NCBI GenBank assembly: GCA_021513695.1
Contig: CP084166.1
Span: 2,976,001-3,040,000, forward strand
DNA length: 64,000 nucleotides
Direction of reading: 5' to 3'
Source: Candidatus Heimdallarchaeum aukensis
GTDB taxonomy: Archaea > Asgardarchaeota > Heimdallarchaeia > Heimdallarchaeales > Heimdallarchaeaceae
Shown here: positions 33,182-48,926 of the stretch, one piece after another
Numbering within the stretch: the first letter of the stretch is position 1
Layout: each line of letters starts with the position of its first letter
Notes under the pieces: generated by a model
Database searches by the model: none
Told to the model about the DNA's origin: nothing
Seen by the model: only the letters and a program-made list of their open reading frames with translations
Translations under genes and position numbers: made by a program

Positions 33182-34573
33182 TTGCGTTCTCTAAGTGTGT
33201 GCACAAAAATTTTGGAAGAGCAAGGAATAAACTATTCTATATACGAACTTGATTCTAAGTCGTTTAGCATAATAGACCCAAGAGTAAAAAAAAGAATAGA
33301 ACAAGTGAAACAAATAGCTGAGAGCTTGAATTGTGTAGTAGGAATAGTTGGTGGATTTATTCGAGACTTGTTATTAAAAAAACCGAGTAAAGATGTTGAT
33401 TTTGTAGTTATTGAAGGTGATTTAGAAAAATTAACAGAAGAAATTGCAAAAAAACTAAAGGCAAAAAAGGCTATAATTCATAACCAAACCTTAACTACGC
33501 AAATACGCTTCGGAGAAGGAATAGTATTTGAGTTTAATGCACCTAGAGTGGAAAGTTATGAGCCTTTGTCTCGCGTCCCAAAGGTAAGAAGAGGAACAAT
33601 AATAGATGATTTAACAAGGAGAGATTTCACTATCAATTCTTTTATACTTTTTGAAAACAAATACTTAGACATTTTTAACAGTAAAAAAGATCTTCTTGAA
33701 GGGATCATTAGAACTACAAGAGAACCATCAATTGTTTTCTCTGAAGATTACTTAAGAATATTTAGAGCAATAAGATTCGCATGTTTACTGGATTTTAAGA
33801 TAGAAGAGAAAACAAAGAAAGGAATAATAGAGAATGCACATCAGCTTAGTTTTGTAGCTAAAGAAAGAATAATTGAAGAGATAAGATTGACAGCTAAAAA
33901 GGATATAGTTTGCTGTTTCAAATTAATGACAGAACTGGCAATTATTCATACTCTTTTTCCTGAATTGAAAAACGAAAAAATAAATGATACTTACATAGTT
34001 TCTTTAAAATATGAAAAAATAGAGAAAGAGCTAGAACTTGTCAAACAACAAAAAGGGATAAACTATTTCCTTTGTTTTTTTGCTTTAGTAATGAAAGAAC
34101 AATTTATTGAAAAGGAAAATTATCTGGCAAAAATCAAAAATGAATTAAAAAAATTCAAGTTTTCAAAAAAAGAGATAGAAAAAATTTTGCTTATTATTAA
34201 ATATTCAAATACTCTAATACACCACATTTTTTATCCTGTTTCAAAAAAAGAATTAGGATTATTGTTAAGAGAAATATTTGAAATTAGAGAAGAAGTTATA
34301 GCTATAAATATTGCAGAAAACAAACTCTTAAAGAAGAAAAATAAAAATTTAGAAAAAATAATAGGCGATTTAAGAGAATTAAGTAAAGATAAAGAACTAA
34401 TTTTTATAAAACCTGCAGTAAATGGTAATGAACTAATGGAATTGGGAATAAAAAAAATGGAAATAAATCAATGTAAAGAATTTTTAATACATGCCTTGAT
34501 GGATGAGCAGCTAGAAAACACAAAGGAAGAATGTATTAAATATGTTAAAAGATATTATCTCCAGAAACGATAG
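33182..34573 (+). CDS. class II nucleotidyltransferase (bacterial/eukaryotic-type CCA-adding enzyme / poly(A) polymerase head domain) protein
   Basis: GIVGGFIRDLLL…DVDFVV (GGxxRD…DxD pol-beta NT motif), RRDFTINS motif; 463 aa. Confidence 0.7.
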   Translation: MRSLSVCTKILEEQGINYSIYELDSKSFSIIDPRVKKRIEQVKQIAESLNCVVGIVGGFIRDLLLKKPSKDVDFVVIEGDLEKLTEEIAKKLKAKKAIIHNQTLTTQIRFGEGIVFEFNAPRVESYEPLSRVPKVRRGTIIDDLTRRDFTINSFILFENKYLDIFNSKKDLLEGIIRTTREPSIVFSEDYLRIFRAIRFACLLDFKIEEKTKKGIIENAHQLSFVAKERIIEEIRLTAKKDIVCCFKLMTELAIIHTLFPELKNEKINDTYIVSLKYEKIEKELELVKQQKGINYFLCFFALVMKEQFIEKENYLAKIKNELKKFKFSKKEIEKILLIIKYSNTLIHHIFYPVSKKELGLLLREIFEIREEVIAINIAENKLLKKKNKNLEKIIGDLRELSKDKELIFIKPAVNGNELMELGIKKMEINQCKEFLIHALMDEQLENTKEECIKYVKRYYLQKR

Positions 34574-39506: not shown

Positions 39507-39564
39507 ACTTAAACCTTAAAAACAATGTAATAAATGTCAAAATGAATTATAGAAAGTGAGTAAA

Positions 39565-39711
39565 ATGACCAAATATATCTGCCAAAATTGTAAAACAGAA
39601 ATTACACCTAATGATTTAAGACTTCTTCCAGGTGTAAAGTGTCCTAAATGCAGTCATAGAATATTAATTAAGAAACGTTCTCTTATAGCAAAGCCAGTGA
39701 AGGCTCGATAA
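39565..39711 (+). CDS. rpoP: DNA-directed RNA polymerase subunit P (Rpb12/RpoP homologue)
   Basis: 48-aa ORF not in the track: MTKYICQNCKTEITPNDLRLLPGVKCPKCSHRILIKKR… The CxxC…LRLLPGV…CPxC pattern is characteristic of RpoP. Confidence 0.6.
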   Translation: MTKYICQNCKTEITPNDLRLLPGVKCPKCSHRILIKKRSLIAKPVKAR

Positions 39712-39752: not shown

Positions 39753-41357
39753 TTATTGTAGAAGTTCAACAACTTCAGCTTTTACTAATTTATCTGAGAG
39801 AGCATCAGTTATTTTTACTCTAGCTACCCTTTTTAGTATATCACTTTCGAATTCAATACTTACAGCAGGACCTGCGTTAATGAAATATCCAATGTAAGTA
39901 TTCTTTCTTTTGAAATCTTTCTCTGCGATAATAACAGTTTCTGTTTTTCCAATTAATTCCTTCTTTTTCTCCTTATTGAATGAAATAATAGTCTGTTTCA
40001 ATTCTTCTCGCTTTTTATGTAAAAGATATCTTTCAGGAGGAGAAGAAACATTCATTTTAGTAAAAGGGCTGTTGGGAAGAGCTAAATATTTGTATACTGT
40101 AACTTTATCTGCAACGTTCCATAAGCGTTTTCTTATTACATCAGTTGTTTTTTCAAGGGCTGATACTGTTTCCCCTGGTAAGGAATGAATAAGATAAATT
40201 TGTGGTTTCAATCCTGCTTCTGTTAAGAGTTTAGCTGCTTTCATTGCTCTTTCAGGGGAAGAAGGTCTTCCTAATTTTCTACTTAATTCTTCATCAAAAG
40301 TCTCACAACCTATAGAAATGGGAGTACCTGGTAGGTATTTGCCTAGAATTTCAGCTACTTGTTTATTTATTAGAGTAGGTTTAACATTTTCAATTATAAT
40401 AGATCTATTGGGTTTCTCATCTCTTATTTCTGCTAGTTCAGAAAGTAGTTGTTCTATCGCTTGTATATTAGGTTCTGGATAAGATGGAGAAACAACTTGA
40501 CCATCTTTCCCTCTCATATAGTCCAAAAAACCAGGAGCAGAAAGAACTATCCTATTTACCCCTAGATCAAATAATTCTCTTATTTCTTTTACGATTAATT
40601 CATGAGGACGACTGATTGGAGCTCCGAAAGTTGTGGGGACACTGCAAAACCCACAACCTGGTGGAATATTAGCAGGACAGTCTATTAGCTCTACTTCTCT
40701 CTCTACTGAGTCAGTACAAAATCCGCAATCAGGGCATAAACCTTTATCTTGTACTAATTCTCCTCTTATAAAGTTTGAACATCCTCTGACAGTTTCCACA
40801 TAAACTCTAGCAAACCAATATTCTTCATAGTCAGTTATAACTTTAGTAGAGGGGTTGTAATTAAAAATATAATATCCTTTTGCCTTCTTCTCTTTTATAA
40901 GATAAGTTTTTCCTATTTTTTCTATCTCAAACTGTTCTCTGTTGTTTTCAATGAAACTTAGAATTTCGAATTTGTTCTCAATCAATTTGTCAAGAAATAA
41001 TTCTCCTTGTCCTTGAACAGCTGCTGTGACTTTTAATTGAGAAACGAAATCAACATCAGAAGTAACAGGTCCACCAACGAAGATTTTTGGTAGCATTACT
41101 TCTGTTTTTAACATTCTTACTATTTCTATTACAGCGATTTCGTCAACACTCATTCCACTAATTAAAAAAGCATCAAAGGAAGTTAAATCATAGTTGTGAT
41201 TTCTAGAGAGTAAATTTTCAGCTCTAATTACCTTAGAGTAAATGTTTTTGTATTCACATATACCAGCAAGTAATCTCGGTCCTACTCCAATTACATCTCT
41301 AGTAAATTTTCTTTTTCCATCATTTGAAGCAAGAGCATCAACAATTAGAATTTTCAC
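39753..41357 (-). CDS. MiaB-like/radical-SAM-like protein with C-terminal TRAM domain and non-canonical cysteine clusters
   Basis: N-terminal flavodoxin/MTTase-like domain; central TIM-barrel-like region with CPDCGFC and CPANIPPGCGFC but no CxxxCxxC; C-terminal TRAM-like beta-barrel. Confidence 0.55.
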   Translation of the reverse strand: MKILIVDALASNDGKRKFTRDVIGVGPRLLAGICEYKNIYSKVIRAENLLSRNHNYDLTSFDAFLISGMSVDEIAVIEIVRMLKTEVMLPKIFVGGPVTSDVDFVSQLKVTAAVQGQGELFLDKLIENKFEILSFIENNREQFEIEKIGKTYLIKEKKAKGYYIFNYNPSTKVITDYEEYWFARVYVETVRGCSNFIRGELVQDKGLCPDCGFCTDSVEREVELIDCPANIPPGCGFCSVPTTFGAPISRPHELIVKEIRELFDLGVNRIVLSAPGFLDYMRGKDGQVVSPSYPEPNIQAIEQLLSELAEIRDEKPNRSIIIENVKPTLINKQVAEILGKYLPGTPISIGCETFDEELSRKLGRPSSPERAMKAAKLLTEAGLKPQIYLIHSLPGETVSALEKTTDVIRKRLWNVADKVTVYKYLALPNSPFTKMNVSSPPERYLLHKKREELKQTIISFNKEKKKELIGKTETVIIAEKDFKRKNTYIGYFINAGPAVSIEFESDILKRVARVKITDALSDKLVKAEVVELLQ

Positions 41358-41662: not shown

Positions 41663-41974
41663 ATGGAAGAAGATTTGTGTCCAGTATGTGGTTTACCTCA
41701 AGACCTTTGTGTCTGTGAGGGGTTAGCAAAAGAAGTGCAGATAATTAGAGTTTATTTAGAAAAAAGAAGATACGGCAAGAACTATACGTGCATATCAGGG
41801 ATTGATCCAAAAGAAGTCGACTTGGGAAATTTAGCGAAAAAACTTAAGACCCAACTTGCTTGTGGAGGAACGTACAAAGATGGAAGAATTGAGTTGCAAG
41901 GAGATCATAGATTTAAAATAAAAGATTTACTTGTAAACGCAGGTTTTCCCGCGGAAAATATAGAAGTGCAGTAA
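41663..41974 (+). CDS. translation initiation factor aSUI1 (eIF1 homologue)
   Basis: N-terminal CPVCG…CVC zinc knuckle, then the SUI1 fold (…ISGID…QLACGGT…); 103 aa. Confidence 0.85.
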   Translation: MEEDLCPVCGLPQDLCVCEGLAKEVQIIRVYLEKRRYGKNYTCISGIDPKEVDLGNLAKKLKTQLACGGTYKDGRIELQGDHRFKIKDLLVNAGFPAENIEVQ

Positions 41975-42057: not shown

Positions 42058-42309
42058 ATGAAGAAAAAAAAGAAAGAGAAAAAAGAAAAGCCAATGCGAG
42101 ATAGAGTGGAAGTTTGTCCGATTTGTTTTTCAATTGTAAAAAGATCTCCCCAAATCTTTGATGTCAACAGTACTTTTCACTGTACTAATAGTGATTGTGG
42201 ATGGAGTGGTTCTTTTGCTGTGGAAGTAGATATTAACGAGTATAAGCAATTTGTTAAGGATAGACAAAACAAAAATGAAAGTGATAAGAATAGTAGAGAT
42301 GAACCATAA
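42058..42309 (+). CDS. small zinc-ribbon protein (hypothetical)
   Basis: CPIC…HCTNSDCG; lysine-rich N-terminus. Confidence 0.45.
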   Translation: MKKKKKEKKEKPMRDRVEVCPICFSIVKRSPQIFDVNSTFHCTNSDCGWSGSFAVEVDINEYKQFVKDRQNKNESDKNSRDEP

Positions 42310-42348
42310 ATTTATTTGATAATATTGTATAAAGAGAGTAGTGAGATA

Positions 42349-43188
42349 AAAATGGAAATAGCAATTGTTACTGATACAAGTAGAGCACTACCTTCCCAAT
42401 TATATAAATTATACAATGTCTATCCTTTAGGTTATTATTTAGAGGATTCTAAAGGAACGATCTTTGCAGAAAGAGTTAGTGCTCAAGAAGTTCAAACAGA
42501 TAAACTTCTAACAATTGCTGAAAAAGATAAGAATGCCCAACTTTACTCTCCGACTGTAAAGGACTTTGTAGAGTTATACACCTTTTTAGAGGAAGATTTT
42601 GATCATATAATTAGCTTTCATTCTTCGTTATTTACTCCAACTGTTTTTGAAAATGCTATACTTGCAAAAAAGGTAGTTTCTGATATAACAGTTGATGTTC
42701 TGGATACTTATTCTTTTGAGTCTTCCTCAGGATTGATTTTAAATCAGCTAGCTAAAAAAATTCAAGATGCAGAATCAATCAATGAAATAAGAAAAGAAAG
42801 TTTTTCTCTTCATGGTAGAATACATAGTCAATTATTAACAAAAAATGACCAATTCAACAAAATAGGATTAAGAAGAGTTACATTCCTTTCAAATATAAAA
42901 TCAGCTTTTGTTCCTTGGAATCTTTATTTGTTTAAACAAAGTAACTGGGATCTAGTCAAAAATTCTCGTTCAATAAAGACTCTACAATCAGAAATGGAAA
43001 CAAGACTAATCTCTCTTGAAAAATCCAAAGATTTGAAATTTTGTTATTATTCATCTTCAAAAAGACTGAACAAAGAAGTAAAAGAACTTCTAGAAAAATT
43101 GGATAATTTATATGTTGAAGAAACTCCTCAAACTTTAGTCGCCTATTTTCTCACTTCAGAATACTCAATGAATATTTCTGTTCTTTAA
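42349..43188 (+). CDS. divergent DegV-family-like protein
   Basis: MEIAIVTDTSRALPSQ… resembles the DegV N-terminus (IxIVTDSxxDLP). Start chosen at Met12 of the track ORF. Confidence 0.5.
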   Translation, partial: KMEIAIVTDTSRALPSQLYKLYNVYPLGYYLEDSKGTIFAERVSAQEVQTDKLLTIAEKDKNAQLYSPTVKDFVELYTFLEEDFDHIISFHSSLFTPTVFENAILAKKVVSDITVDVLDTYSFESSSGLILNQLAKKIQDAESINEIRKESFSLHGRIHSQLLTKNDQFNKIGLRRVTFLSNIKSAFVPWNLYLFKQSNWDLVKNSRSIKTLQSEMETRLISLEKSKDLKFCYYSSSKRLNKEVKELLEKLDNLYVEETPQTLVAYFLTSEYSMNISVL

Positions 43189-43982
43189 CTCTCTTCTTTT
43201 ACTGTTTTTATTCTATAAAAATTTGAAACATTTTCTGTTGTAATATCTGCCAGTTTTTTTACATCCACTTTAATTAATTCTGCAGCTTTTTTTGTTGATA
43301 TTGCTATGGCAGAAGGTTCGTTTTTTTCTCCTTTTCTTAAGCTATGATATGGACTATCAGTTTCAAACATTAACTGAGTTTCCGGAATCAAAGACAAGAT
43401 TTTTTGGAAATTTTTTCTGTAAACTAAACTTGTTGGGACTGTAACAAACCAACCATTATCAACTACTCTTTCAATCTCATTTTCTGTTCCTGTAAAACAG
43501 TGCATTAAAACGTTTTCTAGATTATATGATTCAAGAATATTGATTGCATCTGTTTCTGCAGCTCTCGAATGGATTACAATTGGTTTGTTATTTTTATTTG
43601 CGAGTTCAATAAGACGTCTGAAGAAAACTTTCTGTTCTTTTCTTTTTTCTTCTTCTTTAACCCAATAGTAATCTAATCCAATTTCACCTATAGCTACTAT
43701 AAATTCTGAATTTTTTAATAAAAATTCTTCAATTTTCTTGAAGTTTTCTTCTTCTACTTCTGTTGGTTGCATTCCAATGGTTAGATGAGTCCCATAGTTT
43801 TTTGTTAAAAATACTCCGAATTCAAAGTGATGAGGGCTTAAAATACTATTTATAATTATTTCAACGTTATTTGATCTAGCTCTTTGAACAATTTCTGGTA
43901 TACTTTTTTTTGAGAAAAAAGGAGGGTAAAGGTGACAATGAGCATCTGCAAAAATTATTTTCTGATTTGACATATAATTCAC
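43185..43982 (-). CDS. TatD-family metal-dependent hydrolase/DNase
   Basis: FADAHCHL N-terminal motif, about 265 aa TIM-barrel hydrolase. Confidence 0.8.
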   Translation of the reverse strand: MNYMSNQKIIFADAHCHLYPPFFSKKSIPEIVQRARSNNVEIIINSILSPHHFEFGVFLTKNYGTHLTIGMQPTEVEEENFKKIEEFLLKNSEFIVAIGEIGLDYYWVKEEEKRKEQKVFFRRLIELANKNNKPIVIHSRAAETDAINILESYNLENVLMHCFTGTENEIERVVDNGWFVTVPTSLVYRKNFQKILSLIPETQLMFETDSPYHSLRKGEKNEPSAIAISTKKAAELIKVDVKKLADITTENVSNFYRIKTVKEES

Positions 43983-44959
43983 TATTTACAAATTATATCT
44001 TTTAGCTTCTTGAGCATCTTTATTCCGCGAATTTCTTGGTTGAAAGCTTCAACAGTAGTTACATCATGGTTTGGAAAAGCTTGTTTGATGTACTCTAAAT
44101 TAGCTAAATGCTCTTTTCTTCTATTCATACAGTAAGGACAACTTTTATTTTCTGGATTAATTTGATTGACAACTATTTCTTTATTCGGAATATAATGTTC
44201 TTTTAATTCTTCAAATAGTCGTTCTGACTCAAAAATAGACATAAGTGTAGGAATTCCAACAATTATAAATTGTGTCTTTTCATCATCCATTAGTGTTTCT
44301 CTGGCTATAAGTATCTTCTCTTTTAATTTTTCTAAGTTCTCTATTGTTCTATCTTTTTCTACATTTCCGCCAAAAAGAGATTTAATCATTGCCATTGTAT
44401 TAGAAATGAAGGTTTTCATTTTCAACATTCTACCAATAAAAGAATCTAAAAATTCTGGAATGTTGAGTAATCTCAATGTATGTCCTGTGGGCGCAGTGTC
44501 AAGTACAATCGTGTCGAATTCTTCATTATCCGCATACTCAAGGATTTTAGCAAAAGATAGAGCTTCATCCATTCCTGGTGGAGGGATTGATTTTAGATCT
44601 TGATCTATTCCCTTCATTGCTTCCATTCCTGGAATAGACATCAAACTAGAGAATTGATCTGCATCAAAGGAATCTCCTAATGCTTTTGTTAGTTCATCTC
44701 CTGATGATTCTGGGTTGATTTCTAAAGCGTACAATTCTCCTTTTACACCTTTAACTTTAGTTACAGTTCCAGATGAAAAATCCAAATCAAAAGAATCTGA
44801 AATGCTGTGTGCAGGGTCTGTTGAAACAAGTAAAGTTTTTTTACCTTTTTCAGCTAAAGCAATAGAAATTGCAGAAGCTATAGAAGTTTTCCCTACTCCT
44901 CCTTTTCCCCCTACCAAAATGAACTTTAGGTCCTTCTCTAATAAATCCTTGATAGTCAT
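43982..44959 (-). CDS. ArsA/Get3-family ATPase (tail-anchored protein targeting factor-like) with CxxC motif
   Basis: P-loop GGKGGVGKTS, TDPAHS, DTAPTGHTLRLL signature, CPYC motif near the C-terminus. Confidence 0.8.
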   Translation of the reverse strand: MTIKDLLEKDLKFILVGGKGGVGKTSIASAISIALAEKGKKTLLVSTDPAHSISDSFDLDFSSGTVTKVKGVKGELYALEINPESSGDELTKALGDSFDADQFSSLMSIPGMEAMKGIDQDLKSIPPPGMDEALSFAKILEYADNEEFDTIVLDTAPTGHTLRLLNIPEFLDSFIGRMLKMKTFISNTMAMIKSLFGGNVEKDRTIENLEKLKEKILIARETLMDDEKTQFIIVGIPTLMSIFESERLFEELKEHYIPNKEIVVNQINPENKSCPYCMNRRKEHLANLEYIKQAFPNHDVTTVEAFNQEIRGIKMLKKLKDIICK

Positions 44960-45073: not shown

Positions 45074-45838
45074 TTACTTTCTACGTTTTCTTTTCTTAAT
45101 TTTTCTTTTTTGTTCTTGTTTTGTTTTATGTGGTTTTTTAACCAATGGGGAAATCTTTCTTGAACTTCTTCTTCGTTTATGAACTTTCTGTATAGCGAAT
45201 AAATCTACAATGATTATAGTAGTGAATACTCCAACGATACCCAAGACAAAATAGAATAAGTTTAACCATTTTTCCGAGTCTATAACTTCTACATTTTCAG
45301 GTAATACGACATTTAACGAGTATCTTTGAGAATAAGACTTGTACATAACACTATTTTCATCATAGTATTTTATCTCTGTGGCTTCTAAGGTAAAGTTTCC
45401 TTCAAGTAAAGGTTGGATGTAATAAGTATAAACGAAGCTAGCATTTATTTCAACTTGTATATACTTTTGCTCTGTCAAATTAAAAGTTGAAACTGCCCAC
45501 TCTTCAAAGCTTGGTTCTGTAATAGAAAGATTATACGCTGTTCTGTTTCCAATATTGGTTATATTTAGGTCAATTCTAATCCATTGCAAAGGCTCAAGTT
45601 CAGTAACGTTAATTACCTTCTTTATAGCTAAAAGTGGTCTGCTAGGTAATGTATCATTAGTGTCATTTAATGCTAAATATGGTCGATAGTAATTTCTCTC
45701 TGGTTCCTGAATTTTTTGAATCTGGTCATTGTTGTTTATTACACTGTTGGAACCACTAATAAATGATGAATTTACAGCTAAAACTAACATCACAACTAAT
45801 ACAAATCGTAAATACTTTCTTCCGGGCATATGTTTCAT
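45074..45838 (-). CDS. secreted N-glycosylated surface protein with C-terminal TM anchor and long basic tail
   Basis: Signal peptide, many NxT/S sequons, C-terminal TM, then KVHKRRRSSRK…KRKIKKRKRRK. Confidence 0.55.
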   Translation of the reverse strand: MKHMPGRKYLRFVLVVMLVLAVNSSFISGSNSVINNNDQIQKIQEPERNYYRPYLALNDTNDTLPSRPLLAIKKVINVTELEPLQWIRIDLNITNIGNRTAYNLSITEPSFEEWAVSTFNLTEQKYIQVEINASFVYTYYIQPLLEGNFTLEATEIKYYDENSVMYKSYSQRYSLNVVLPENVEVIDSEKWLNLFYFVLGIVGVFTTIIIVDLFAIQKVHKRRRSSRKISPLVKKPHKTKQEQKRKIKKRKRRK

Positions 45839-46045
45839 TATCCTTTTATTGCTTATGGAGCATGAAATAATCTCGTTTAAATATTTTGCTCTTGGAACTA
45901 GAAATAAGCTAGCGCTTTATTTACTTATCGCCTATTTTTTTCCTTATATTTAGATGTTATTTTAAGAATTCTAGGTAACAATATTTTATGGTAAAAGAAC
46001 ATAGTAACAATTATAAAAAGGTGGATTTGTTTTAAATTGAGAGCA

Positions 46046-46936
46046 ATGACTGTTAAAATTCTATGTGATACTAGTGCAGATTTGAATCTTCCCACTGATC
46101 AAACAATCTATGACAAATATAACATTGGAACTTTTCCCATGCATGTTATTTTTGGAACGAATGATTATAGAGAATTAGTTGACATAAAAACTTCTGAATT
46201 CAGGAAAAAGATCTATGAAACAGATGTTCATCCCACCACTTCTCAACCAACACAATTTGATATCTTAACACAATTTGAGAAGTTTGGAAAAGACTACGAT
46301 GAAATCATATCATTTCATATCTCATCAAAATTAAGTGGGAGCTATGCTAATGCAAAAATAGCTAAAAAAATGTATGAGAAATCAAATAAAGAACATGCTA
46401 AAGTGTATTTAGTTGATAGTTTATTAGCTAGTTCAGCTTTTGGACTTGTAGTTATTAAAGCCGCTAAGTTAGCAGAAGAAGGTCTGTCTGGACAAGAAAT
46501 AGTTGATAAAATAAACGATTGGAAAAAAAATAATATAGTTGTTTATTTCACTGTAGAGAACTTAGAGTGGCTTTATCGCGGAGGTAGATTAAGTAAAACT
46601 AAGTACTATTTAGGTAGCATGTTAAACAAAAAACCAGTTTTAACATTAGTTGATGGAGAAATTGTGAGTGCAAAGACTGTTACAGGAATAGAAAAAACTT
46701 TTGATACTATAATTGACCTTGCCTTTAAACGCTTTCCAGAAGTTGAGCAGGAGAGAATAATGTACAATATTATCGAATTTGATTACAAAGATGTAGTAGA
46801 TGATGTAATTCAGAAAACGAAAAACAAGTATCCTAATGCTAAAGAAGGAAAAGTGTTTGAAATGGGAGGAACAATTGCAGCTCATACTGGTCCAAAAACT
46901 CTAGGGTTTATTGTTACCAAAGATTTTGAATTTTAA
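46046..46936 (+). CDS. DegV-family protein (tandem paralogue 1 of 3)
   Basis: MTVKILCDTSADL… (track ORF starts 9 nt upstream, at 46037). Confidence 0.8.
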   Translation: MTVKILCDTSADLNLPTDQTIYDKYNIGTFPMHVIFGTNDYRELVDIKTSEFRKKIYETDVHPTTSQPTQFDILTQFEKFGKDYDEIISFHISSKLSGSYANAKIAKKMYEKSNKEHAKVYLVDSLLASSAFGLVVIKAAKLAEEGLSGQEIVDKINDWKKNNIVVYFTVENLEWLYRGGRLSKTKYYLGSMLNKKPVLTLVDGEIVSAKTVTGIEKTFDTIIDLAFKRFPEVEQERIMYNIIEFDYKDVVDDVIQKTKNKYPNAKEGKVFEMGGTIAAHTGPKTLGFIVTKDFEF

Positions 46937-47003: not shown

Positions 47004-47912
47004 ATGACAATAAAGATTTTGTGTGATACTTCAGCTGATCTTGTCTTACATCCAAATAAGCCACTGTATGACTCGCTAGGTGTTGGAATTCTTCCCATGA
47101 AAGTTTTTTTTGATGAGAATGATGTTTTTTTAGAGCAAAAAAATATTAGTAACATACAGTTTTATGAGTTAATAAGACTCTCCCAGACCCAACCTAAAAC
47201 CTCTCCTCCTTCAGCAGATGATATATTTAAAGAATTTCAAAGATATGGAAGAGAATATGATGAACTAATTTCTTTACATATTTCTAAAGATTTAAGTCAT
47301 ACATATTTTAACGCTGTTGAAGCAAAGAAGAGATACTTGAAAACTGAATCAAATCCAGCCAAAATAAATATAATTCATAGTGGTGTTGCAAGTTTAGCTC
47401 TGGGAAAACTTGTATTGAAAGCTGTTGAACTTAAAAATAAAGGTTTTGAAACTTCTGAAATTATAAAACAACTTTATTCTTGGAAAGAAAATAATGTTAA
47501 AGCAGCTTTTACTGTTAGAGATTTAAATTGGTTATATGAAGGAGGAAGACTTACAAGGTCACAGAAAACAATAGGTACAATATTAAATAAAAAACCTGTT
47601 CTTACTTTTGATCATGGAAAAATCAATGTAATTGGTTATTCAACAGGATTGGAAAGAACATTGAGATTTATGGTTAAATATCTCTTATCACAGATGGAGG
47701 AGGAGAAAATAAACAAACTTACCTTGTCTTTTATCACAGCACAGAATTTTGGTTTAATAGATGACTTCTCAAGAGTAATAAAGAAAGAATTTCCGAAAAT
47801 TAATTTAGGTCCTAAATTTGAGCTAGGTGCAACAATTACTAGCCATACAGGAATGGAGACAATAGGTTTTGTAATTTCAAGTAATCTTAAAATAGATCCT
47901 TTAATAAAATAA
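47004..47912 (+). CDS. DegV-family protein (tandem paralogue 2 of 3)
   Basis: MTIKILCDTSADL…; …LYEGGRLTRSQ… conserved with its neighbours. Confidence 0.8.
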   Translation: MTIKILCDTSADLVLHPNKPLYDSLGVGILPMKVFFDENDVFLEQKNISNIQFYELIRLSQTQPKTSPPSADDIFKEFQRYGREYDELISLHISKDLSHTYFNAVEAKKRYLKTESNPAKINIIHSGVASLALGKLVLKAVELKNKGFETSEIIKQLYSWKENNVKAAFTVRDLNWLYEGGRLTRSQKTIGTILNKKPVLTFDHGKINVIGYSTGLERTLRFMVKYLLSQMEEEKINKLTLSFITAQNFGLIDDFSRVIKKEFPKINLGPKFELGATITSHTGMETIGFVISSNLKIDPLIK

Positions 47913-48035: not shown

Positions 48036-48926
48036 ATGACAGTAAAAATAATGACCGATAGTGCAGCAGATATTCCCGAATATCTCCTAAAGGAGTATGA
48101 TATCTCTACAGTCCCCACAGTAATCAGATTTGGTGATGATGTCTATTATGAAAACAAAGATTTGACTTTGGATCAATACTATGAACTATTTCATTCTCAT
48201 CCAGAACCACCTCAAACAGCTAATCCTACTTTAGCTGATGACTTTGAATTATACAAAAAACTAGGAGAAGAAGCTGATGAAGTGATAAATATTGTTATTT
48301 CTAGCGGTATTTCTGGTTCATTCAACACTTCTAATGCTGCTTTGAAAATGTATGAAAAGAGAGTAAAAGATGGTGCAAAAGTATATGTCTTTGATTCACA
48401 TTTTGCTACAATGGGTATAGGTGTCCAAGCTTTAAAGGCTTCAGAGATGGCTAAAGAAGGACATAATGCAGCTGAAATATTGGCAATGTTAGAAGAATAC
48501 AGAGACAAATTAGCTGTTGCTTTCACAGTAGATAATTTAAAGTATCTCCATAGAGGAGGAAGATTGTCAAAATCTAAATTTTGGATAGCCAAACTAGCTG
48601 ACTTACATCCTGTGATTACTTTTATTGATGGAAAAATGGAAGTTGAAAAGACTTCTAGAGGTTATGATAATGCAATGGAAAAAGCTTTTGATCTATCTTG
48701 GGAAAAAACGAATAAAGCTAAGAAATTCAATGCCTATATCTGTTATGGAGAAAATAAAGAACACGCTCTATACATGAGAGATTATATCCAAGATAAAGTA
48801 GATGCAGAATTTAATATCGAGATATATCAAGTAGGAGCAACAATAATTACCCATACAGGTCCAGAAGTAAGTGGAATACTGCTTGATCCTTATAATGAAA
48901 AACTCTATAAAGCATCAGAAAAATAG
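48036..48926 (+). CDS. DegV-family protein (tandem paralogue 3 of 3)
   Basis: MTVKIMTDSAADIP…; …LHRGGRLSKSK…. Confidence 0.8.
   Translation: MTVKIMTDSAADIPEYLLKEYDISTVPTVIRFGDDVYYENKDLTLDQYYELFHSHPEPPQTANPTLADDFELYKKLGEEADEVINIVISSGISGSFNTSNAALKMYEKRVKDGAKVYVFDSHFATMGIGVQALKASEMAKEGHNAAEILAMLEEYRDKLAVAFTVDNLKYLHRGGRLSKSKFWIAKLADLHPVITFIDGKMEVEKTSRGYDNAMEKAFDLSWEKTNKAKKFNAYICYGENKEHALYMRDYIQDKVDAEFNIEIYQVGATIITHTGPEVSGILLDPYNEKLYKASEK

Follow-up and report, generated by a model that had tools for sequence, protein, structure and literature searches.

We analysed a 64,000-nucleotide stretch of the genome of Candidatus Heimdallarchaeum aukensis (contig CP084166.1, positions 2,976,001 to 3,040,000 of the forward strand; hereafter, the window), and concentrate here on a single gene within it that encodes an archaeal radical S-adenosylmethionine (SAM) protein. 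The gene starts at a GTG codon, the N-terminus of its product being level with residue 1 of its homologues, and encodes an N-terminal Rossmann domain, a central radical-SAM core and a C-terminal TRAM domain (Table 1). An earlier note on this DNA had placed the gene between rpoP and aSUI1, and Pfam agrees: RpoP (PF03604) lies at 39556-39711 and SUI1 at 41663-41974, so that the flanks are formed by TFB, GlyRS and RpoP on one side and by aSUI1 on the other.

The protein belongs to a family that we call MJ1620-type, after the M. jannaschii orthologue listed as 'Uncharacterized protein MJ1620' (Q59015). Its closest homologue is 96% identical, and the homologue of Ca. Heimdallarchaeum endolithica 83%. 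A HMMER scan of 1.84 billion cluster representatives gave 343 matches, with about 50 full-length representatives of the family at E < 1e-56; other radical-SAM proteins, mostly with canonical motifs, were matched over their full length only from E ~1e-13 on, and because of this gap we regard the family as discrete. When GTDB species genomes were scanned, 407 loci were found, placing a member in at least 407 archaeal species. The 80 listed GTDB loci include Heimdall-, Thor-, Odin-, Hel- and Baldrarchaeota, Bathyarchaeia, Hadarchaeota, Korarchaeota, Desulfurococcaceae and cultured Methanocaldococcus, to which the protein matches add Lokiarchaeota, Theionarchaea, Methanotorris and Fervidicoccus fontis. 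No member was found among the matches from Methanococcus, whose species are mesophilic close relatives. Database labels for these proteins go no further than 'radical SAM protein', 'B12-binding domain-containing radical SAM protein' or 'YgiQ family', a literature search found no paper on MJ1620 or its family, and the family is without a characterised member. Some members bear bacterial labels from metagenome-assembled genomes (MAGs): L055 (DATLAV010000204.1, 'Patescibacteria group bacterium'), L081 (DATKWY010000300.1, 'Candidatus Desulfaltia sp.') and P0086 ('Zixibacteria'). L055 and L081 carry neighbours of Bathyarchaeia type (RpoH/Rpb5, OMP decarboxylase and others), and for that reason these two contigs are probably archaeal and were mis-binned into bacterial MAGs.

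Radical-SAM enzymes are usually recognised by a CX3CX2C motif. As had been claimed, this motif is absent from the query, and it is absent from the 120 best homologues as well. The query has nine cysteines (34, 193, 208, 211, 214, 227, 235, 238 and 351), seven of them packed into 46 residues, with about 0.4% cysteine in the rest of the protein; this pattern is far beyond chance. The two cysteine strings described earlier, CPDCGFC at 208-214 and CPANIPPGCGFC at 227-238, are indeed present, but that account was incomplete, as it overlooked C193, which sits in 'VETVRGC', a typical radical-SAM beta-1 strand. Likewise, both 'CGFC' clusters exist, but the second CGFC is peculiar to Heimdallarchaeaceae, most homologues having C[ST][DEN]CG[NS]C. 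In an orthologue survey of the kind the earlier note had proposed, 112 homologues, with identities as low as 34%, showed little or no variation at any of the seven cysteines. The presence of the family in at least 407 GTDB archaeal species implies purifying selection on all seven.

Where would the ligands of the radical-SAM cluster lie? Three independent alignments agree that an insertion breaks the CX3CX2C motif right behind its first cysteine; by homology, this makes C193, C235 and C238 the ligands of the radical-SAM [4Fe-4S] cluster, with a spacing of CX41CX2C. The family profile matches MgmA (PDB 9CCB) in two segments: profile positions 79-193 end at '...VYIETHRGC185', and positions 230-412 begin at P186 with 'PGNCTFC', so that the insertion, about 36 profile positions long, falls precisely behind the first cysteine of MgmA (C185|P186). 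In a MAFFT alignment with outgroups, canonical proteins show 'RGC-PxxC-xFC', a CX7CX2C family shows 'RGCSR-x5-GGCSFC', and the MJ1620-type family shows 'RGCSN-[insert]-PGCG[FY]C'. In hhalign, the core match to E. coli MiaB begins at C235, opposite MiaB C161, and runs through the TRAM domain to the C-terminus. C235-G-F-C238 aligns with C189-T-F-C192 of MgmA, C161-T-Y-C164 of MiaB and CTFC of RimO. A phmmer search against the PDB pairs MgmA IETHRGCPGNCTFCQVP with query IDCPANIPPGCGFCSVP, with C235 and C238 again as second and third ligands and Ile231 at the position of the first. C193, C235 and C238 show 100% conservation, and all sequences have F or Y at position 237. One subclade of Crenarchaeota (Fervidicoccus fontis and Thermoproteota MAGs) keeps RGC...GC[AG][YF]C, including C193, around a cysteine-free spacer of 11-26 residues, which further points to these three cysteines as the radical-SAM ligands.

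The remainder of the core has the features expected of an enzyme of this kind. PF04055 (Radical_SAM) scores well above its curated Pfam threshold and the partial TIM-barrel fold is present; the canonical spacing is not, but the three homologous cysteines are, as is the aromatic residue before the last of them. Features of the MiaB/HemN/class-B kind include the motifs 'IENxK' and 'GxET', a strand 'LSAPGF' that pairs with RimO 'LVAQDT', and 'IHSLPGET' opposite MiaB 'IVGFPGET'. The earlier note had left a choice between a radical-SAM enzyme with a rearranged motif and an RNA-binding protein with a TRAM domain, in which the fold persists but SAM is no longer cleaved. The second reading is suggested by the literal absence of CxxxCxxC, yet it would have to account for three ligand cysteines that stay 100% conserved even in the clade without cysteines in its insert, for the conservation of the CxΦC aromatic and the core motifs, and for the Radical_SAM score; because of this conservation we consider it essentially excluded. 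Extended first spacers also have a functional precedent in 7-carboxy-7-deazaguanine synthase, QueE, with CX14CX2C (PMC4389238), although the QueE insert has 11 residues without metal ligands, whereas the spacer of 41 residues in the query carries four invariant cysteines, and the two enzymes are unrelated in fold class and chemistry. The next-nearest neighbours outside the CX3CX2C rule, archaeal COG1031-type radical-SAM proteins (e.g. Methanococcus aeolicus WP_011974146), share the 'ETxRGCS' start and have 'RGCSR-x5-GGCSFC' (CX7CX2C), but with a short spacer, no inner Cys4 and a C-terminal helix-hairpin-helix instead of TRAM, and they match at E of only ~1e-12. From these sequence comparisons we consider it very likely that the protein is an active radical-SAM enzyme with a split motif.

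The insertion itself carries the four remaining conserved cysteines. In the 112 sequences C208, C214 and C227 are 100% conserved, C211 92% (the remainder being alignment gaps) and P228 98%; a few members vary the spacing of the inner triad to CX3CX2C or CX2CX3C. Of the 247 unique sequences of the family, 238 carry the full inner set of four cysteines (four of these with a fifth), nine, from Crenarchaeota, carry none, and no sequence carries one to three. Since the inner cysteines are either all present or all absent, they likely form one metal site, a reading we hold with good confidence. That one clade lacks the site while the enzyme is conserved in other respects speaks for an accessory role, one not essential for the chemistry.

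Which metal the site may hold is a closer call. A CxxCxxC triad with a distal Cys-Pro is a hallmark of ferredoxin-type [4Fe-4S]/[3Fe-4S] sites, as in monocluster ferredoxins, and the query insert reads CxxCxxC...x12...CP; zinc ribbons, in contrast, usually show two CxxC pairs. Alternatively, the inner cysteines could bind structural zinc, forming a small knuckle that braces the enlarged loop. Cys4 sites of short loops commonly hold zinc, structural metals are often dispensable as this site is in one clade, and Pfam runs on isolated insert segments matched Fer4, Fer4_2 and Fer4_6 only at E 0.1-5, over the CxxCxxC stretch in 4 of 8 segments, while the insert of one member gave a weak zinc-finger match (E 0.016). 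However, the cysteine spacing is of ferredoxin type, and the site is embedded in a loop that would hold another [4Fe-4S] cluster, in an enzyme of an anaerobe. On balance the motif leads us to lean slightly towards an Fe-S site over zinc, and to rate the zinc knuckle as the less likely of the two, though a serious contender.

We next consider the N-terminal domain, which had been described as flavodoxin- or methylthiotransferase (MTTase)-like. As regards MTTases this description does not hold: the domain is of the B12-binding type. Pfam B12-binding (PF02310) matches 18 of 22 homologues (best E 5e-10), and hhalign aligns the domain with residues 740-896 of E. coli K-12 MetH (E 7e-5, probability 62%). 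In the MetH register D21, I23 and G26 fall on D757, H759 and G762, S67 and M69 on S804 and L806, and G95-G96 on G833-G834. D21, I23, G24 and G26 are invariant in one family alignment and at least 90% conserved in another, and M69, G95 and G96 are invariant. Read in this alignment, the N-domain keeps the classical cobalamin signature with its histidine replaced by isoleucine (DxIxxG...SxM...GG). Matches of the N-domain profile in the PDB are MgmA, a radical-SAM N-domain (4Q37), the B12-binding protein AerR, TokK and CysS, and the best sequence relatives in both NCBIfam and the PDB are cobalamin-dependent families. A PF02310-type Rossmann domain ahead of a radical-SAM core is the arrangement of class B enzymes. 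These bind corrinoid in a base-off/His-off mode with a non-coordinating residue beneath the corrin (PMC11796369, PMC12931638), which an isoleucine in place of the histidine would fit, and by analogy the same mode may apply here. In Methanocaldococcus sp. 16A (L053 4001-7290) the orthologue is followed on the same strand by a gene resembling precorrin-2 dehydrogenase/siroheme synthase and by hemA, identified from their translations, with one spacing of 1 bp and one overlap; these neighbours, seen only in the genus Methanocaldococcus, make a tetrapyrrole or corrinoid link possible.

The C-terminal domain follows a MiaB-type core, as in MTTases. TRAM is an RNA-binding module in most families, for example in MiaB, MtaB and RlmD/RlmCD. 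AlphaFold2 modelled the protein with a mean predicted local distance difference test score (pLDDT) of 84.8 from 22 sequences, the insert falling below 50, and of 93.7 from 112 sequences, with a predicted TM-score of 0.92 and the insert at 66-91. In structure comparison, AprD4, CysS, TsrM and TokK are listed among the lower-ranked relatives, and the best structural match of the TRAM domain is to an rRNA methyltransferase, RlmCD (5XJ1; root-mean-square deviation 1.4 A over 59 residues). Among the rRNA m5U methyltransferases of RlmD/RumA and RlmCD type, RumA has, besides its TRAM domain, a [4Fe-4S] cluster that is fully Cys-ligated and non-catalytic, like the accessory cluster proposed for the query. 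Yet RlmD/RumA and RlmCD are classical Rossmann-fold SAM methyltransferases without radical chemistry, and the cluster lies elsewhere in the protein.

Table 1. Position of the gene and of features of its product in the window (aa, amino-acid residues of the product)
Feature	Window position	Strand	Remarks
Whole gene, 534 aa + stop	39753..41357	minus	Member of the MJ1620-type archaeal radical-SAM family; full-length homologues 34-96% identical
Rossmann domain, aa 1-140	40938..41357	minus	B12-binding type; no conserved Cys
D21-V-I23-G-V-G26	41280..41297	minus	Counterpart of cobalamin DxHxxG, His replaced by Ile
S67-G-M69	41151..41159	minus	Counterpart of cobalamin 'SxL'; M69 at the position of MiaB auxiliary-cluster Cys49
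G95-G96	41070..41075	minus	Counterpart of cobalamin 'GG'; next residue, P97, at the position of MiaB Cys83
Radical-SAM core, aa 183-443	40029..40811	minus	Partial TIM barrel
C193 in 'VETVRGC'	40779..40781	minus	Inferred first [4Fe-4S] ligand; aligns with MgmA C185 ('IETHRGC') and with RGC of canonical outgroups
41-residue insertion, aa 194-234	40656..40778	minus	In the cluster-binding loop; profile break against MgmA; outgroups have 3-7 residues here
C208-P-D-C211-G-F-C214	40716..40736	minus	Inner CxxCxxC triad; all-or-none with C227
C227-P228	40674..40679	minus	Distal 'CP'; presumed fourth accessory ligand; lost together with the triad in 9 Crenarchaeota-type sequences
C235-G-F-C238	40644..40655	minus	Predicted ligands two and three of the radical-SAM cluster; CxΦC, aromatic residue as usual
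TRAM domain, aa 468-534	39756..39956	minus	C-terminal; five-stranded beta barrel

The likeness to MiaB raises the possibility that the protein is a divergent MTTase (MiaB/MtaB/RimO-like) whose auxiliary [4Fe-4S] cluster has left the N-domain for the insertion, beside the radical-SAM cluster, and which would still transfer a methylthio group to tRNA. MTTases (7MJV, 9A6D, 4JC0; TIGR00089) carry three auxiliary-cluster cysteines in a UPF0004 N-domain together with a canonical CX3CX2C. In the query, by contrast, the motif is split, the N-domain bears a B12 signature and matches B12-binding models instead, and, as the earlier note recognised, the three MTTase cysteines are missing: the only cysteine of the domain, C34, is not conserved, and in a weak hhalign match to the MiaB N-domain (26% probability) M69 and P97 stand opposite C49 and C83. 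PF00919, the MTTase N-domain, gave no Pfam match to the query at E<=1. NCBIfam scores lie far below their cutoffs for TIGR00089 (63.2 against 251), MiaB (55 against 355), RimO (45 against 357) and MtaB (33 against 357), and these scores, with the missing N-domain cysteines, rule out assignment to the family as a 'MiaB-like MTTase'. The inner site fares no better as a relocated auxiliary cluster: its four cysteine ligands would leave none of the irons free to react with sulfide or methylsulfide, it is dispensable in the Crenarchaeota subclade, and in our reading it is not a sulfur donor. We therefore judge a divergent MTTase quite improbable. A further comparison is the glutamine C-methyltransferase of MCR (MgmA/QCMT; TIGR04014). 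MgmA has a canonical RGC-PGN-C-TF-C without insertion, inner Cys4 or TRAM, and its substrate is a peptide. The query scores 69.8 against the TIGR04014 cutoff of 360 and 91.6 against the cutoff of 251 for TIGR04013, the family of the MgmA paralogue MJ1487, remaining below both equivalog cutoffs; the Methanocaldococcus orthologue scores 133.7 and 132.7, respectively.

On present sequence evidence the protein is best described as a class-B-type (cobalamin) N-domain joined to a MiaB-type core and a TRAM domain, with an accessory Cys4 metal module apparently acquired in the cluster-binding loop. We read it as an active radical-SAM enzyme that probably depends on cobalamin and acts on RNA. In the mechanism that we propose, the TRAM domain would present a nucleic-acid substrate (tRNA or rRNA), and the radical-SAM cluster held by C193, C235 and C238 would cleave SAM. 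The resulting 5'-deoxyadenosyl radical would take a hydrogen from an unactivated carbon of the TRAM-bound RNA nucleoside. The methylcobalamin of the N-domain would then give a methyl radical equivalent, as in MgmA or TokK but on RNA, and a second SAM would remethylate cob(I)alamin. The accessory centre would lie next to the radical-SAM cluster and would most likely be a fully ligated [4Fe-4S] cluster of ferredoxin type, serving as a built-in electron relay or a structural cap; as a relay, the nested cluster would pass electrons to the radical-SAM cluster. Cobalamin-dependent methyl transfer, drawn by analogy with such enzymes, is put forward tentatively, at somewhat less than even odds, and taken as a whole, inferred steps included, we give this explanation about an even chance of being right.

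Instead of RNA, the enzyme could modify a protein or peptide, such as a ribosomal protein or a translation factor. The two closest characterised profile relatives both modify proteins (PMC11796369; PMC10702137 for RimO): MgmA acts on a McrA peptide, and the TRAM domain of RimO binds S12. The gene neighbourhood, compared at 82 loci, can also be read in this way: 29 Asgard loci have a divergent aSUI1 upstream of the gene (36-456 bp away in 28 of them), and in Bathyarchaeia the gene adjoins RNA-polymerase subunit genes, with RpoH following it in 21 loci of Bathyarchaeia type. GlyRS lies downstream in 17 Asgard loci. However, this neighbourhood is not conserved across phyla, TRAM binds RNA in most families, and the best structural match of this TRAM is the rRNA methyltransferase. 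We consider RNA the more plausible substrate, with moderate confidence, and a protein substrate unlikely. The neighbourhood is compatible with a role in information processing, but it consists of housekeeping synteny blocks that differ between phyla, and we set it aside as a clue to the substrate.

The joining of a B12-type domain with TRAM suggests a possibly new RNA-modifying chemistry. The most far-reaching form of this idea is that the protein is the first class B radical-SAM enzyme known to modify RNA, a C-methylase of an unactivated tRNA or rRNA carbon that would recognise its substrate through TRAM, use the [4Fe-4S] cluster of the loop as an electron conduit and be the source of an orphan archaeal nucleoside modification; we regard this combination as speculative and rather unlikely to hold in full. 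One such modification would be the hn6A/methyl-hn6A series, whose extra carbon is described as being of unknown origin (PMC6313347, PMC10702137). That the enzyme supplies this carbon is a guess, and at best a very improbable one; hn6A-type nucleosides occur in Methanosarcinales and Thermotoga (PMC10702137, PMC6313347), where we did not see the MJ1620-type family.

Several other features of the window were recorded. A TatD-family hydrolase (43185-43982, minus strand) has counterparts in 34 of the 82 loci, in most of them ~1.3-1.7 kb upstream of the radical-SAM gene; these loci span Asgard archaea and Bathyarchaeia, the intervening genes differ, and the proximity could reflect ancient synteny or a functional link. 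Directly after aSUI1 lies an open reading frame of 83 residues (42058-42309, plus strand) with no Pfam match and a zinc-ribbon-like CPICF...HCTNSDCGW, its position being kept in 22 Asgard loci. Four paralogues of the DegV family (fatty-acid-binding) fall within 7 kb, all on the plus strand (42316-43188, 46037-46936, 47004-47912 and 48036-48926), and one DegV gene stands between the SUI1 block and TatD in 24 Asgard loci. A homologue of the eukaryotic translocon-associated protein beta (TRAP_beta, PF05753, E 2e-10; 45074-45838, minus strand) neighbours an ATPase of ArsA/Get3 type (PF02374, E 1e-83; 43982-44959, minus strand), a eukaryote-like pair for membrane-protein targeting that occupies the same position in related Heimdall loci (L001). 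The gene at 33182-34573 (plus strand) encodes a class-II type nucleotidyltransferase, with a PolyA_pol head and RNA-binding domains, of the kind found as CCA-adding enzyme or poly(A) polymerase in bacteria and eukaryotes. It stands out in an archaeon, since the CCA-adding enzymes of archaea are normally of class I. Neither ARAGORN nor Rfam at its gathering threshold found a tRNA gene or RNA family in the window (1-64000), and its GC content is uniform at 28-36%.

In a large and ancient archaeal family, found in at least 407 species, among them most Asgard lineages and the cultured Methanocaldococcaceae, the radical-SAM motif is split by 41 residues that bear a further Cys4 site, present or absent as a whole. 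Neither the literature nor database labels were found to describe the split motif, the nested site or the combination of B12-type domain and TRAM. The question is open to experiment, because a cultured hyperthermophile has an orthologue, MJ1620, while its mesophilic Methanococcus relatives are absent among the matches. If our reading is correct, the B12-type domain and TRAM would point to a corrinoid-dependent radical alkylation, of which literature searches found no description for RNA. The nested site would offer a natural case of an accessory metal centre within a radical-SAM cluster-binding loop, and the known tolerance of that loop would be widened well past the CX14CX2C of QueE.

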